A DNA stretch of 64,000 nucleotides from the sequence record OQ446694.1, one strand, 5' to 3'. Positions 58,274 to 63,365 of the stretch are shown in pieces. Position 1 is the first letter of the stretch; the number at the start of each line of letters is the position of its first letter. Origin of the DNA: Escherichia phage Killian. The notes beneath the pieces are model-generated. The model saw only the letters and a list, made by a program, of their open reading frames with translations. It was not told the DNA's origin and ran no database searches. The position numbers were made by a program, and so were the translations under genes.

Positions 58274-59692
58274 TTATGGATAGGTATAGATGATACCAGT
58301 TTCTAAAGCAGTTTTATGAATGATGTATCCATTACGTGATTCTTGAACATCAACTTCTGGATAGTCTTTCATCATCTTCTGAAGAGTGTAACGATGCAGG
58401 TAGTATTTACTGTCTGGATCTTCAGTTTTCCAATCTTTACCTTCTTCGGTCATTTTTTGGATTTCATCCATAACCCACCAACCGCACCAGATATAAGCTG
58501 AAGTACGATGTGGAAGAGGATGAACATAAGGCAATTCACCTTCTGGTTCCGGAGCAACTTTATCAGTTACCTGAACTTGGCCTGTTGCTTTAACTGTTTT
58601 ACTATCATAGTCGGTTGCTGTAACGACAGCAGTAACTTCAATAGTTTGACTTCCAATAGATGAGGTGTCAACGGTGTATACGTTAGTTGACCCTTCTACA
58701 GGAGAAGAATCTTTCTTCCATGAGTATTCGATTTGTGCTTCTTCTGGAGCATCAGTGACATTAGCCGTAAATGTAGCCGAAGCATCTTGCTGAACGTTAA
58801 TAGAAGGAGGAGTCAATGTAACCTGCGGATTCATTGTCTTCTTATTAACTGTCAATGATACTTCATTAGAAGTAACTTCCTTTTCATTGTAATTTTCAGC
58901 CGTTACTTGGGCTACACACTTAACTGTTTTAGCTCCAACTGTGGTAGGAGTATAGTTAAATGTAGTAGTAGTTTCTCCATCGACCAGAGAACCGTCAACA
59001 TACCACTGATACGTAGCAGACGCTCCTGGTGGCTGTGAATCCAAGGCAGCAGTAAATTGAACTGGGGTTCCAATTACTCCGGCAGCAGGATTAGCAGGAG
59101 TTACGGCTAACGTAGTTGTCTGTGTTTTCTTATTAACTGTTAATGATACTTCATTAGAAGTAACTGTTTTTGCGTCATAATCTGTTGCTGTTACTTGAGC
59201 TACACACTTGATTTTTTTAACTCCGCTTGTGTCAGGAGTGTAATTGAATGTAGCGTCAGTTGCTTCGTCTACAGGAGAACCGTCAACGTGCCATTGATAC
59301 GTAGCGTTTGCACCTGATGGCTGTGAAGCTAAGGCAGCGGTAAATTCAATTGGAGTTCCAATCACTCCAGCATCAGGGCTACCAGGAGTTACAGCTAAAG
59401 TAGTTGTTTGTGTTTTATTTTTGACTGTGATAGTTGTCGTAGTTTCTGCTGTTTCAGGATCAGCTTCTGGAACTGTATTTGTTGCAACCACCTTAATAGT
59501 CTTTTGACCTGCAGGTCCTTTTAGTACATAGCTAAAAGTTGCTTCAGCTCCATCCTGTGGAACATTATCTACACTCCAAGCATAGGTAATAGTTCCACCT
59601 TCAGTTTGACCACTGGGTGTAGCAGTAAACTGCTTGGTTTCATCAATAACTCCTGTTGGGGTTTTAGGAGTTATATCAACTGTAAAAGTCAT
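58274..59692 (-). CDS. hoc: Hoc, highly immunogenic outer capsid protein (Ig-like domains), 472 aa
   Basis: Thr/Val-rich Ig-like repeats followed by a conserved C-terminal capsid-binding region (PYVHPLPHRTSAYIWCGWWVMDEIQKM...); contains an internal tandem domain duplication. Confidence 0.9.
   Translation of the reverse strand: MTFTVDITPKTPTGVIDETKQFTATPSGQTEGGTITYAWSVDNVPQDGAEATFSYVLKGPAGQKTIKVVATNTVPEADPETAETTTTITVKNKTQTTTLAVTPGSPDAGVIGTPIEFTAALASQPSGANATYQWHVDGSPVDEATDATFNYTPDTSGVKKIKCVAQVTATDYDAKTVTSNEVSLTVNKKTQTTTLAVTPANPAAGVIGTPVQFTAALDSQPPGASATYQWYVDGSLVDGETTTTFNYTPTTVGAKTVKCVAQVTAENYNEKEVTSNEVSLTVNKKTMNPQVTLTPPSINVQQDASATFTANVTDAPEEAQIEYSWKKDSSPVEGSTNVYTVDTSSIGSQTIEVTAVVTATDYDSKTVKATGQVQVTDKVAPEPEGELPYVHPLPHRTSAYIWCGWWVMDEIQKMTEEGKDWKTEDPDSKYYLHRYTLQKMMKDYPEVDVQESRNGYIIHKTALETGIIYTYP
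58841..59416 (-). repeat. In-frame tandem duplication (2 x 288 bp) inside hoc encoding two ~96-aa Ig-like domains
   Basis: Protein units KTQTTTLAVTPGSPDAGVIGTPIEFTAAL...SLTVNK and KTQTTTLAVTPANPAAGVIGTPVQFTAAL...SLTVNK; DNA units visibly similar (e.g. ttcttattaactgt(c/t)aatgatacttcattagaagtaac). Confidence 0.85.
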
Positions 59693-59701
59693 AAGTTATC
59701 C

Positions 59702-60382
59702 TTATTTTAATGTTACGAAAGAAGAATTGCGTGTTTCACGAATTAGAACTGATCCGTCACGATTAATGTAGTAAATTAAGCTAAATAAAGTTTGATGCGC
59801 AGACGCATGTTCAAAACTGGTTGGGCGAGATTTCCAATCTGGAGTTTCAGCAATCCATTGGTAAATCCACCAAGGAACAGTGCAGAATCCTGGATTTTTT
59901 CCAATCAGCTGAAGATTTGGGCTAAAGTTTTCCGGAAGAGTAAATACAGACGGCTTTTCAGATTCAATAATCTCAGCTACAGCCTGTTCGAATTTTTCTT
60001 CAACAAAAGGAGTATCTTCAATCAAAACATCGGTATTTTCAGGAATTTTATCCGTTTCTACTACTTCAATTTTAATGTCAGATTTAACCGGAGAATCAAT
60101 CAGAAGTGCTGCCTCTGGATTGACTTCTTCATCGTCATATTTTAATCCGTCTGCGGCATCAGCAGCATCGATTAAGTCTTTAATAGATAACCCATCAGTC
60201 TCTGGCATAGGTTCACTAGCGAGCTTCTGGAGGGCTTCTTCAATATCATTAACGATATTATCAAAAGATTTATTCTTTTTGACCTTTATACCAAACTGTT
60301 CAGCATATTCAGCTAATTTAGCTTTAGCTTCTTTATTATCATCAAGAGCCTTCAGCTTTGCAATATAATCTTTATCTATCAT
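59702..60382 (-). CDS. inh: Inh, inhibitor of prohead protease gp21
   Basis: 226 aa; position between hoc and uvsW; matches T4 Inh. Confidence 0.85.
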   Translation of the reverse strand: MIDKDYIAKLKALDDNKEAKAKLAEYAEQFGIKVKKNKSFDNIVNDIEEALQKLASEPMPETDGLSIKDLIDAADAADGLKYDDEEVNPEAALLIDSPVKSDIKIEVVETDKIPENTDVLIEDTPFVEEKFEQAVAEIIESEKPSVFTLPENFSPNLQLIGKNPGFCTVPWWIYQWIAETPDWKSRPTSFEHASAHQTLFSLIYYINRDGSVLIRETRNSSFVTLK

Positions 60383-60395
60383 AATATTTCCTCAG

Positions 60396-60403
60396 TATAA
60401 ATA
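60396..60403 (+). promoter_or_regulatory. Late promoter (TATAAATA) for uvsW
   Basis: Exact motif 30 nt upstream of ATG 60433. Confidence 0.7.
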
Positions 60404-60432
60404 TAGATATATTTATTACATGGTATTTAAAC

Positions 60433-61944
60433 ATGACTGACATTAAAGTACATTTTTATGATTTTAGTCACGTGAGAATTGATTGCGAAGAAAGTACATT
60501 TCATGAACTCCGTGATTTCTTTAGCTTTGAAGCTGATGGGTATCGTTTTAATCCGAAATACAAATATGGCCACTGGGATGGACGAATTCGTCTTTTAGAT
60601 TATAATCGCCTTCTTCCATTCGGTTTAGTCGGGCAAATTAAAAAGTTCTGTGATAACTTTGGCTATAAAGCCTGGATTGACCCGCAAATTAACGAAAAAG
60701 AAGAATTATCAAGAAAAGATTTTGATGAATGGCTTTCTAAATTAGAAATCTATTCAGGAAATAAAAGAATTGAACCGCATTGGTATCAAAAAGATGCAGT
60801 GTTCGAAGGATTAGTTAATCGTCGTAGAATTCTTAATCTTCCAACATCCGCAGGTAAATCTTTAATTCAAGCTTTGCTCGCTCGGTATTATTTGGAAAAT
60901 TATGAAGGCAAAATTCTTATCATTGTTCCAACAACTGCTCTGACAACTCAGATGGCTGATGACTTTGTTGACTATCGTTTATTCAGTCATGCAATGATAA
61001 AGAAAATCGGCGGTGGAGCATCAAAAGATGATAAATATAAAAATGATGCACCGGTCGTTGTTGGTACATGGCAAACTGTAGTAAAACAACCAAAAGAATG
61101 GTTCTCACAGTTTGGAATGATGATGAATGATGAATGTCATCTTGCTACAGGAAAAAGTATTTCATCTATCATATCAGGTTTAAATAACTGTATGTTTAAA
61201 TTTGGTTTGTCTGGTTCATTGCGCGATGGCAAAGCTAATATCATGCAGTATGTTGGAATGTTCGGTGAAATATTTAAGCCAGTAACGACCTCTAAATTAA
61301 TGGAAGATGGACAAGTAACTGAGTTAAAAATTAATAGTATTTTTCTTCGCTATCCCGATGAGTTCACTACTAAATTAAAGGGAAAAACTTACCAAGAAGA
61401 AATAAAAATTATTACTGGGCTCAGTAAAAGAAATAAATGGATCGCTAAATTAGCTATTAAGCTTGCGCAAAAAGATGAAAATGCTTTTGTCATGTTTAAA
61501 CACGTATCGCACGGTAAAGCTATTTTCGATTTAATTAAAAATGAATACGATAAAGTTTATTACGTATCAGGGGAAGTTGATACCGAAACCCGCAATATAA
61601 TGAAAACCTTAGCTGAAAACGGTAAAGGAATAATTATAGTAGCTAGTTATGGTGTATTTTCTACCGGTATTTCAGTTAAAAATCTGCATCACGTTGTTTT
61701 AGCACACGGTGTTAAATCTAAAATTATTGTATTGCAAACAATAGGTCGCGTATTACGTAAGCATGGTTCTAAAACAATCGCAACAGTCTGGGACCTCATA
61801 GATGACGCGGGCGTAGTTTCTAAATCAAAAACATCTTCTAAAAAATACTCGCATTTAAACTATCTTTTAAAACATGGACTTGATCGTATTCAGCGTTATG
61901 CTGATGAGAAGTTTAATTATGTGATGAAAGAGGTTAAACTTTGA
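60433..61944 (+). CDS. uvsW: UvsW DNA/RNA helicase (SF2)
   Basis: 503 aa; Walker A PTSAGKS, DECH box; matches T4 UvsW. Confidence 0.95.
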   Translation: MTDIKVHFYDFSHVRIDCEESTFHELRDFFSFEADGYRFNPKYKYGHWDGRIRLLDYNRLLPFGLVGQIKKFCDNFGYKAWIDPQINEKEELSRKDFDEWLSKLEIYSGNKRIEPHWYQKDAVFEGLVNRRRILNLPTSAGKSLIQALLARYYLENYEGKILIIVPTTALTTQMADDFVDYRLFSHAMIKKIGGGASKDDKYKNDAPVVVGTWQTVVKQPKEWFSQFGMMMNDECHLATGKSISSIISGLNNCMFKFGLSGSLRDGKANIMQYVGMFGEIFKPVTTSKLMEDGQVTELKINSIFLRYPDEFTTKLKGKTYQEEIKIITGLSKRNKWIAKLAIKLAQKDENAFVMFKHVSHGKAIFDLIKNEYDKVYYVSGEVDTETRNIMKTLAENGKGIIIVASYGVFSTGISVKNLHHVVLAHGVKSKIIVLQTIGRVLRKHGSKTIATVWDLIDDAGVVSKSKTSSKKYSHLNYLLKHGLDRIQRYADEKFNYVMKEVKL

Positions 61945-62633
61945 ATTATAAATTAATATATGATAATTTAATTAATAGAGCCCAGAATCGGGCTCGCCTT
62001 AATGGATACACTGAAACTCATCATATAATTCCTAGATGTATGGGTGGTACAGATGATAAGTGTAATTTGGTAGAACTAACAGCTGAAGAGCATTTTATAG
62101 CTCATAAACTTTTAGCTAAAATTCATCCAAACCATTACGGTATAATTAAAGCCGTTATATGTATGGGAATGAATTCAAATACTCATGAAAGACACGTTAA
62201 TAAATCTTACGCCTGGGAACGTCGTAAAATGGCAAAACTTCAATCAGGTGAAGGTAATCCATTTTACGGAAAACACCATACGGAAGAACATAAACAATAT
62301 ATGTCAAAACTCATGAAAAATCGTCCAATTACGTGGGGAAGTAAAATTAGTAAAACTAAAAGAATGAACCCAACAAAATGGACTGAAGAAGCTAAAAGAT
62401 TGCATTCTATCAATCAATCAGGTAAAAATAATGGCATGTATGGAAGGAAACATTCCGCTAAATCTATTCAGAAAATTAAAGATAACATGCCAGATAATTC
62501 AGGAGCTAATAACCCAGCTGCTAAACCTATAGAAGTAAATGGTGTTAAGTATAAATGCATGAAAGATGCTTCTAAAGCTACTGGATTATCAATGTACAAA
62601 CTAAGAATACTTAGAAAAACAGTTAATTTATAA
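61941..62633 (+). CDS. HNH homing endonuclease with NUMOD3 repeats and C-terminal NUMOD1-like HTH; TTG start
   Basis: HNH core THHIIPRCMGGTDDKCNLVELTAEEHFIAH; NUMOD3-like GEGNPFYGKHHTEEHKQYMSK and GKNNGMYGRKHSAKSIQKIK; AAGAGG SD 7 nt before TTG overlapping the uvsW stop. Confidence 0.8.
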   Translation: MNYKLIYDNLINRAQNRARLNGYTETHHIIPRCMGGTDDKCNLVELTAEEHFIAHKLLAKIHPNHYGIIKAVICMGMNSNTHERHVNKSYAWERRKMAKLQSGEGNPFYGKHHTEEHKQYMSKLMKNRPITWGSKISKTKRMNPTKWTEEAKRLHSINQSGKNNGMYGRKHSAKSIQKIKDNMPDNSGANNPAAKPIEVNGVKYKCMKDASKATGLSMYKLRILRKTVNL

Positions 62634-62648
62634 GGGCTTCGGCCCTTT
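62634..62648 (+). terminator. UUCG-tetraloop hairpin (GGGC-UUCG-GCCC) directly after the HNH gene
   Basis: Hairpin followed by tttgg then the uvsW.1 SD. Confidence 0.5.
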
Positions 62649-62889
62649 GGAGAAAAAGATGTTACTAGAATTTAAACAATTTCTTTATGAAGCTTCTATT
62701 GATGAATTTATGGGTAAAATTGCCTCTTGTCAAACAATAGAAGGTCTAGAAGAACTTGAAGCTTATTATAAGAAAAGAGTTAAAGAAACTGAATTAAAAG
62801 ATACTGATGACATCTCAGTCAGAGATGCTTTGGCAGGAAAAAGAGCTGAATTAGAAGATTCAGACGATGAAGTAGAAGAAAACTTTTAA
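62647..62889 (+). CDS. uvsW.1: UvsW.1-position small acidic protein (80 aa)
   Basis: GGAGAAAAAGATG SD/start; small acidic protein downstream of uvsW. Confidence 0.65.
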   Translation: MEKKMLLEFKQFLYEASIDEFMGKIASCQTIEGLEELEAYYKKRVKETELKDTDDISVRDALAGKRAELEDSDDEVEENF

Positions 62890-62944
62890 ATTAAAAAAGG
62901 CCCAACCAAAAAGGAAGGGCCAAAACTATAGACTAAAGGTCACA

Positions 62945-63112
62945 CTATAGCAAAAGTTGAGTTTCATTTAATTGTTCTTCCGAACTTTCTGAAACTGGTA
63001 GTTCTTTAATGTAATTATAACAAGGCCCAGGATGTACAGGACCTTTGTCTGTTTCAACAACCAATGCAGAATCGATTGGAGTTTTACAGACAACGCAAAT
63101 CTTATCTGACAT
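62945..63112 (-). CDS. Small protein (55 aa) at the uvsY.-2 position, not in ORF track
   Basis: Minus-strand ATG 63112 to TAG 62945; MSDKICVVCKTPIDSALVVETDKGPVHPGPCYNYIKELPVSESSEEQLNETQLLL; CxxC...C motif. Confidence 0.5.
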   Translation of the reverse strand: MSDKICVVCKTPIDSALVVETDKGPVHPGPCYNYIKELPVSESSEEQLNETQLLL

Positions 63113-63140
63113 GATTGTCTCCTCTAAATTATATATCTAT

Positions 63141-63365
63141 TTATATAACTCTCATATGCATATCAATGCCCATATCTTTAGAATAAAAATATTCATCAAG
63201 ATATCCGGCAAATTTTCCTTTAACATAAAGTACATCTTCACCACATGGATGATCGGCCAGGATACGAATATCCTGACGCTTGAGATTATACTTTTTCATT
63301 AAGAATTGAATTTCCGTTTCGAATTCTTCTTCATAATTAAAAGCATCATCAATGCTATATTTCAT
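63141..63365 (-). CDS. Small protein (74 aa) at the uvsY.-1 position
   Basis: ORF track; immediately downstream of uvsY. Confidence 0.6.
   Translation of the reverse strand: MKYSIDDAFNYEEEFETEIQFLMKKYNLKRQDIRILADHPCGEDVLYVKGKFAGYLDEYFYSKDMGIDMHMRVI

Follow-up and report, generated by a model that had tools for sequence, protein, structure and literature searches.

The free-standing Mob and Seg endonuclease genes of bacteriophage T4 are typically promoterless, lie in the orientation of the host gene, target a neighbour and are inherited together with flanking markers (PMC2988022; PMC2790892), the targeted gene being the one beside their own insertion site (PMC2988022). MobE, for instance, is promoterless and nicks the neighbouring gene in an HNH-dependent manner, is inherited with flanking polymorphisms, and has 27 nucleotides (nt) after its AUG a stem-loop that acts as a weak intrinsic terminator (PMC2790892). 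At the helicase gene uvsW, a 2010 review table of the T4 endonucleases has only SegE (PMC2988022). The theme of the present article is another gene attached to uvsW, found in a stretch of 64,000 nt of Escherichia phage Killian DNA (OQ446694.1; below, the window). It is an open reading frame (ORF) at 61941..62633 on the + strand, 230 amino acids (aa) long and starting with TTG in the ORF list, which is followed by uvsW.1 and is denoted here HEG, for homing endonuclease gene. Very probably, it belongs to a free-standing Mob-type homing endonuclease cassette that sits in the last five codons of uvsW, targets the 3′ end of uvsW in phages lacking the insert, and homes by repair. The type of element is ordinary, and some GenBank records already say homing endonuclease; neither the gene nor its site was found described in the literature on uvsW, uvsW.1 and free-standing HNH genes in Tequatrovirus.

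Among the known systems, MobE, encoded between nrdA and nrdB, resembles HEG in being a free-standing HNH gene with no recognisable promoter of its own, placed in the same orientation right after the upstream gene, with a stable stem-loop some 30 nt from the start of the ORF and with co-inherited polymorphisms on the side of the neighbouring gene; similarity to RB3 mobE DNA extends over the first 161 nt of the query, at 72% identity. The two differ in site and presumed target, which for MobE is nrdB and not uvsW, and in the C-terminal half; moreover, the HEG start, unlike that of MobE, overlaps the upstream stop, and its cassette lies inside the upstream ORF, whose end it rebuilds. MobB, located between alpha-gt and alpha-gt.2, is the T4 paralogue listed by DNA search (79% over 120 nt of the HNH region). 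It shares with HEG the N-terminus and the HNH block (MNYxxIY...YTETHHIIPRCMGGTDDKxNLVxLTxEEHFxAH), but overall identity is 30%, and it has no NUMOD3 pair, another C-terminal region and no equivalent 5′ hairpin. In I-HmuI (PDB 1U3E), an HNH domain is followed by an extended DNA-binding region that ends in a helix-turn-helix. SegE, a GIY-YIG endonuclease encoded between inh and uvsW in T4, is like HEG a selfish endonuclease gene attached to uvsW, and both occur together in T6, PYPS2T, ACG-C40 and HY03, yet it belongs to an unrelated nuclease family, lies at the opposite end of uvsW and is absent from the window. Use of one junction by different endonuclease genes is exemplified by SegH/Hef, which replace mobC/mobE, and a mobA-gene 60 cassette was reportedly dealt with by Bonocora and colleagues in 2011. 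With both of these HEG has in common that its junction is used by different genes (P479 versus SP18, below) and that a piece of the host gene travels along; it differs from them in locus and in that the accompanying piece is here a recoded host 3′ end and, in Gaprivervirus, a 17-nt direct duplication.

Anatomy and distribution of the insertion

The flanks of the locus were compared between 10 Tequatrovirus loci with HEG and 7-8 without it. Whole-region MAFFT alignment misplaced the 689-nt gap, and the two flanks were aligned separately, with the left anchor at 60700 since the 5′ end of uvsW differs in segE-containing phages. The anchor-to-anchor span is 2161 nt in all loci with HEG and 1472 nt in those without, and the net insertion relative to insert-free genomes is 689 base pairs (61930..62618, +), its ends ambiguous by an AAA present at both. 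In seven insert-free phages the empty junction is identical, uvsW ending in ...AAT TAC GTA ATG AAA ACA GTT AAT TTA TAA (NYVMKTVNL and stop) with the hairpin GGGCTTCGGCCC directly after it. In the window, uvsW (60433..61944, +; 503 aa) ends in ...AAT TAT GTG ATG AAA GAG GTT AAA CTT TGA (NYVMKEVKL and stop), of which the last four codons and the stop (EVKL and stop) come from the insert. This replacement tail, AAA GAG GTT AAA CTT TGA (61927..61944, +), holds the Shine-Dalgarno sequence and the TTG of HEG. The displaced original end, AAA ACA GTT AAT TTA TAA (K T V N L and stop; 62616..62633, +), found unchanged where uvsW ends in T2, RB68 and others, now forms the C-terminus and stop of HEG (...AGA AAA ACA GTT AAT TTA TAA, RKTVNL and stop), after which comes the same hairpin as in insert-free phages. 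Alignment of the junction with insert-free phages, a check suggested by the initial annotation of this DNA, has thus defined the insertion point. The flanking genes are those which that annotation had given, uvsW and uvsW.1, but the insertion lies not in the spacer between them but inside uvsW, after codon 498 (ATG AAA, then the insert), within its last five codons.

Both host genes are intact on either side of HEG: uvsW has 503 codons and its own stop, and uvsW.1 (62659..62889, +) encodes 76 aa from the ATG at 62659, with GGAG 5 nt 5′ of it. Their Pfam matches are UvsW_N (3.9e-43) and UvsW-1 (7e-30), respectively. A scan of 60300-63200 against Rfam gave no family at E<=1, so that no group I intron was detected there, and HEG is consequently taken as free-standing, outside any intron or intein. 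A hairpin does follow the ORF, as initially annotated, GGGC-UUCG-GCCC at 62634..62645 (+) between uvsW and uvsW.1, but it is native to the locus and outside the insert, since T2 and RB68, which lack the insert, have GGGCTTCGGCCC in the same position. The adjacency of uvsW and uvsW.1 in T-even phages, stated in the initial annotation for T4, is correct for T2, RB68, PYps5T, wV7, JK38, teqdroes and slur03, in all of which the two genes directly abut. That HEG had split an ancestral uvsW into uvsW and uvsW.1 was also considered and ruled out, the two ORFs being already separate in insert-free phages. The T4 reference record (NC_000866; L004 1678-3441) annotates uvsW as one fused ORF of 1764 nt that includes uvsW.1, which the literature attributes to a sequencing error; in line with that account, the T4 record is one base shorter than other phages in the uvsW/uvsW.1 stretch. 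As for uvsW.1, the mechanical ORF list begins it at TTG 62647 (80 aa), and relatives are annotated from the equivalent of ATG 62659, with a coding sequence of 231 nt.

As to the source of the cassette, the replacement tail in the window (ATGAAAGAGGTTAAACTTTGA) resembles the native uvsW tail of a metagenomic contig, SRR28032203 (ATGAAAGAGGTTATTATTTGA), and UvsW of that lineage also has the KKYSH motif present in UvsW of the window. It is plausible from these likenesses that the Tequatrovirus cassette came from a diverged relative and that its left join arose by homology within uvsW. The right join, equally plausibly, would have been made through a short match, GAAAA, just 5′ of the recipient's last codons, which were thereby kept behind HEG.

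With a 2.4-kb query of the locus, HEG was found in 48 of 812 flank-matching phage records (~6%), and its C-terminal half, specific to this gene, retrieved the same 48 records at >=96.7% identity; in IMG/VR there were only two near-identical carriers. One match, H62 (Pu-Krd-SF4), was dropped as a site carrier, as it represents a different locus. T6, PST, ACG-C40, HY03, UFV-AREG1, the PYPS2T group and ZN18 are among the carriers, while T2, T4 and RB68 are without the insert. Both states occur within one species, PYPS2T being a carrier and PYps5T a non-carrier, and over the rest of uvsW (60700-61784) carriers and non-carriers interleave, nearest neighbours often being of opposite state. The gene is, in short, patchily present at one fixed site that is cleanly empty elsewhere. 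This bears out the proposal of the initial annotation that a homing endonuclease gene has inserted at the conserved uvsW/uvsW.1 junction, most relatives being without it; presence of the ORF in essentially all T4-like phages, named there as the outcome that would speak against the proposal, was looked for and is not what is seen, given the 48 of 812 records and the pair PYPS2T and PYps5T.

The HEG ORF is intact in all 10 copies compared, with a ratio of nonsynonymous to synonymous polymorphism (pN/pS) of 0.06, and 29 of its 36 variable sites are at third codon positions. Per-site diversity is 2.1% in the cassette versus 2.9% in the flank. The strong purifying selection, together with conservation of the HNH residues discussed below, points to a gene product that is probably an active enzyme. 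These data already contradict the view of HEG as a decaying relic or a chance functionless ORF, to which its weak TTG start and a Pfam HNH score under threshold might lend colour and which is barely credible in the face of that pN/pS, of 10 intact copies out of 10, of invariant catalytic residues and of orthologues (55-70% identity) that are all full length.

The predicted endonuclease and its expression

Its sequence places HEG among the free-standing homing endonuclease genes of T4 Mob type, with an HNH/NUMOD3 make-up. The HNH core, delimited by domain and motif matches, covers approximately residues 23-55 (62007-62105, +), and is followed on the same strand by NUMOD3 repeats at approximately residues 94-122 and 157-185 (Pfam, E=1.3e-13, two stretches) and by an I-TevI-like helix-turn-helix at approximately residues 193-218 (sequence and fold matches). 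In an alignment of 65 family sequences H28, P31, G36, N42, L46, E50, H51 and H55 are invariant, and the set H28/N42/H51/H55 is the predicted HNH pattern; these invariant residues, a block shared with MobB and a match to PHROG 655 ("homing endonuclease", 4e-61 against the HEG protein) mark the catalytic motif of an HNH homing endonuclease. Residues 157-216 align to the DNA-binding domain of I-TevI (1I3J) with E=0.006 and match it also by fold, the Pfam model of that domain gives a weak hit (E=0.03), and Pfam NUMOD1 gives none. The mean predicted local distance difference test (pLDDT) value of the AlphaFold model is 87, and the model has its top Foldseek matches in the DNA-binding domain of I-TevI (probability 0.99) and in HNH domains (0.90-0.93), all with weak E-values. 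Relatives of the protein number 338 at E<=1e-5 in a large protein collection, and full-length orthologues show 55-70% identity. Of the domains read from the letters in the initial annotation, the HNH core stands, the NUMOD3 repeats are two and not three, and the C-terminal helix-turn-helix, part of a modular DNA-binding tail with the NUMOD3 repeats, is I-TevI-like.

The 230-aa ORF starting with TTG over the uvsW stop, with a Shine-Dalgarno sequence 7 nt 5′, is present as described there. The TTG at 61941-61943 overlaps the uvsW TGA at 61942-61944 (a 4-nt overlap), and GAGG at 61930-33 lies 7 nt 5′ of it. Because a TAA stop (61934-36) is found in the HEG frame two codons upstream of the TTG and a start at the next ATG would cost the nuclease motif its first histidines, the TTG is the sole workable start, and it is the start codon in all 10 Tequatrovirus copies. 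Several GenBank records, W143 (L094 2041-2634) and SP18 (L006 2593-3192) among them, begin the gene at an internal ATG and so lack its first 32-33 codons, with the HH of HNH, likely because TTG had been left out of account as a start; annotators should note that this ORF is cut short by gene callers that ignore TTG. GenBank labels for it are inconsistent as well, ranging over "homing endonuclease", "mobD", "MobE", "GIY-YIG", "NUMOD3 motif protein" and "group I intron endonuclease".

An exact match to the T4-type late-promoter consensus TATAAATA is found at 60396..60403 (+), 30 nt 5′ of the uvsW ATG, and no further copy occurs between it and HEG; a scan for sigma-70-type promoters gave sites not above shuffled expectation. 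This late promoter is the probable source of a transcript that also carries HEG, and its position, with the start/stop overlap, suggests co-transcription of uvsW and HEG and translational coupling between them. A hairpin masking the Shine-Dalgarno sequence and the TTG (61908-61942) was considered and dropped, being no more stable than shuffled sequence (z=-0.72).

A GC-rich hairpin, GAGCCC-AGAAUC-GGGCUC (61978..61995, +; z=-2.93), does lie 37 nt into the HEG ORF, and in a per-sequence sliding-window analysis the most stable 36-nt window was at the same place, ~35 nt in, in seven of seven ORFs at this site, that of P479 (see below) included. Hairpins are found at about +33 to +55 of each HEG in L005, L006, L104, L106, L107 and L103. 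Their position is conserved, their stem sequences differ, and they fall in the least conserved segment of the protein. The probability of such a coincidence by chance is ~1e-8, a rough estimate that takes ~18 independent windows per ORF and stem registers chosen from individual folds. When the 5′ hairpin regions were aligned with MAFFT, RNAalifold found nothing, the stems being out of register. The hairpin may act in attenuation, ribosome pausing or RNA stability; it recalls the internal terminator of mobE but has no poly-U tract.

Linked changes in uvsW and the candidate target

All 29 fixed differences between carriers and non-carriers fall in 61815-61923, with none in the 1115 nt of 60700-61814 and none in the 242 nt of 62619-62860. 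They delimit a 115-nt 3′ segment of uvsW (61815..61929, +) that is inherited with HEG and comprises two sub-blocks: 61815-61851, which is ~50% diverged and in which the protein loop VKPKSANTKKKYVH becomes VVSKSKTSSKKYSH in carriers, and 61857-61923, with nine substitutions that are synonymous except for one Ile/Leu codon. With the carrier-type uvsW tail as query, 48 records matched at >=95% identity, equal to the count of carriers, and four more at 90-95%. In Jiaodavirus, divergence between the carrier Roth67 and JD18 is 24% in the last 100 nt of uvsW and 0% in the first 100 nt to the right. In Gaprivervirus, divergence from EAWsc9 is 14-20% for SP18 and P479 on the uvsW side and 0-2% on the right. 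Flanking markers are thereby seen to be co-inherited with the gene, by 29 differences in Tequatrovirus and by these comparisons in two further genera, a pattern that suppressed recombination could also give.

Linkage confined to one side is the pattern expected of homing with obligatory co-conversion and points to a target in the uvsW 3′ end, the likely target thus being the 3′ end of insert-free uvsW. Within it, the best candidate is the run of codons A-D-E-K-F-N-Y-V, 10-45 nt before the insertion point, at which carriers differ from insert-free congeners in three genera, with, for example, GAA AAA changed to GAG AAG and TAC GTA to TAT GTG/GTT, both in Tequatrovirus and Jiaodavirus carriers.

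The mechanism we propose would run as follows. The cassette brings a uvsW end of its own, in which the ribosome-binding site and the start of the endonuclease are also contained, and since it carries this substitute end, uvsW stays whole. The endonuclease would be translated from the uvsW late transcript, coupled to the uvsW stop. When a carrier and an insert-free phage infect together, the uvsW 3′ end of the latter would be nicked or cut by the enzyme, likeliest within the last ~40-115 nt, and recombinational repair from the carrier genome would copy the cassette, along with ~115 nt of adjacent uvsW, into the genome so cut. Carriers would escape cleavage through the numerous, mostly silent, changes in this part of uvsW and through the disrupted junction.

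Several points weigh against this account or against parts of it. The position of the linked block does not prove where a cut is made, since crossovers are suppressed wherever a stretch matches poorly and adjoins a large heterology, here one of 689 nt. The hyper-diverged sub-block at 61815-61851 is present without the insert in Escherichia phage LH2 (L100 2001-2145), one of the four records at 90-95% identity, whose uvsW has the carrier-type first sub-block (VVSKSKTSSKKYSH) and from there changes over, between 61851 and 61857, to the type of insert-free phages, in a 5-7 nt identical stretch (CATTT); conversely, carriers of other genera keep the insert-free form of that sub-block (VKPKSAN..KKKYVH). 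On both grounds 61815-61851 is doubtful as a target and was down-weighted. Even in the favoured codons, GAG and TAT are already seen in L131, a Tequatrovirus-like contig without the insert. For Jiaodavirus as for Gaprivervirus, the comparison depends on a single carrier, the Pfam HNH match of the HEG protein (E=0.008, 16.7 bits) falls under the gathering score of 21.4 bits, and a search of the literature found no published cleavage or homing assay of the protein.

Other occupants of the junction and alternative explanations

Orthologues of HEG occupy exactly the same junction, their start overlapping the uvsW stop by 4 nt, in at least six lineages, the holders being 12 Klebsiella phages, about seven Gaprivervirus records, Morganella phage Rgz1 and two metagenomic T4-like contigs. 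Roth67, matched above to Jiaodavirus JD18, is the one examined of the Klebsiella carriers, and Citrobacter phage NM4.3 is also among the matches. Of the seven lineages at the site, Roth67, Rgz1, SRR23468750 and P479 start the gene with ATG, and the window, SP18 and SRR28032203 do so with TTG; with four of seven using ATG, a TTG start, which the initial annotation took as a means of dampening expression, is not a family trait, while the 4-nt overlap with the uvsW stop is common to all.

In Shigella phage SP18, the last part of uvsW stands on both sides of the insert as a perfect direct repeat of 17 nt (ATTAAACAGGTGGAAAT; L006 2480-2496 and 3172-3188), and UvsW and the endonuclease both end in IKQVEI. 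The repeat holds an AGGTGG ribosome-binding site, one copy of which serves the endonuclease and the other uvsW.1. A synthetic empty site made by leaving one repeat copy matches insert-free Gapriverviruses as a single uninterrupted piece. At the same site, Escherichia phage P479 (L103 1568-2353) has a different, 261-aa HNH protein, whose ATG start overlaps the uvsW stop, of which only the first 11 residues are common to the SP18 protein, and whose ORF ends on the uvsW tail FIKQVEI and stop; vB_YenM_P8, judged by insert size, has the P479-type gene there. The different gene in P479 looks like the invasion of a hot spot.

A more comprehensive picture can be drawn from all of this, though only tentatively, as it is somewhat more apt to be wrong than right: the junction would be a multi-genus hot spot with a dedicated Mob lineage, characterised by a recoded host 3′ end, by codons shared with the host gene at both ends, by a hairpin that throttles expression as the terminator of mobE does and by recognition of the last ~45 nt of uvsW. 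Carriers of three genera may, if so, have recoded those ~45 nt independently or jointly, and LH2-like phages would be repair products with part of the recoded allele and without the gene.

Two further explanations of HEG have to be set against homing to the uvsW 3′ end. It might be a passenger, kept for some other reason or with its target elsewhere, that has spread by ordinary recombination or in trans through SegE breaks in uvsW, much as MobE mobilises a defunct I-TevIII. Trans-homing of this sort has precedent (PMC2790892), the listed target of SegE is uvsW (PMC2988022), SegE lies between inh and uvsW in T4, T6, PYPS2T, ACG-C40 and HY03, with an unnamed ORF of the same size in LH2, and the linkage pattern alone is no proof of local cleavage. 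Yet the window and four others of the 10 carriers are without segE, the linked tract adjoins HEG at the uvsW 3′ end, 1.4 kb from the segE end, with no fixed differences in the rest of uvsW, and neither the strong purifying selection and HNH residue conservation, which point to an active enzyme, nor the retention of one site by orthologues across at least six lineages is what a passenger would lead one to expect; we regard this explanation as unlikely.

Rather less probable still is that HEG is a domesticated nuclease with no homing role, serving for example to exclude or degrade competing phage genomes, and descended from an old insertion that was inherited vertically and repeatedly lost. The closeness of cassette diversity (2.1%) to that of the flank (2.9%) does imply that the insert is not very recent in Tequatrovirus, and the gene is under purifying selection. 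But carriers and non-carriers interleave in the flank genealogy and both states occur in one species, precise loss would need the exact empty junction to be regenerated hundreds of times, and the same site is held by a different HNH gene in P479; besides, marker exclusion and homing are the same biochemical act.

With regard to SegE itself, the spacer between inh and uvsW in the window (60383-60432) contains no segE, which T4 has there (L004 1058-1675). An ORF of the same size, 618 nt, stands at the segE place in T6, PYPS2T, ACG-C40, HY03 and LH2 (for example, L001 1817-2434), variously annotated, for instance as "homing endonuclease", "SegA" or "tail tape measure protein". Phages with this 5′ ORF have a uvsW of 1509 nt with a different 5′ end, and among the phages examined the 5′ ORF and the 3′ HNH gene of uvsW assort independently.

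The locus adds an uncharacterised, apparently active Mob-type endonuclease, as predicted, and a new homing site to the T-even catalogue. Mildly unusual in it are that the insertion falls in the last codons of the host gene and brings a replacement tail, that the hairpin is shared, and that the junction behaves as a hot spot across genera. It shows on a small scale how the end of a conserved gene can be invaded by a selfish gene and stay undamaged, the substitute end serving the selfish gene as its translation start. Since HEG is present in classical T6 and absent from T2 and T4, homing could be tested by standard crosses. In crosses between T-even phages, the uvsW-uvsY region is inherited unequally, and the gene may have a part in this.

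Elsewhere in the window, the Hoc head-decoration gene (58274-59692, -) encodes 472 aa with obvious internal repeats. Annotated hoc genes vary in length, with 1131 nt for T4, RB68, JK38 and teqdroes, about 1419-1425 nt for PYps5T, wV7 and F26, and 1995 nt for slur03, which suggests that repeat domains have been gained and lost.

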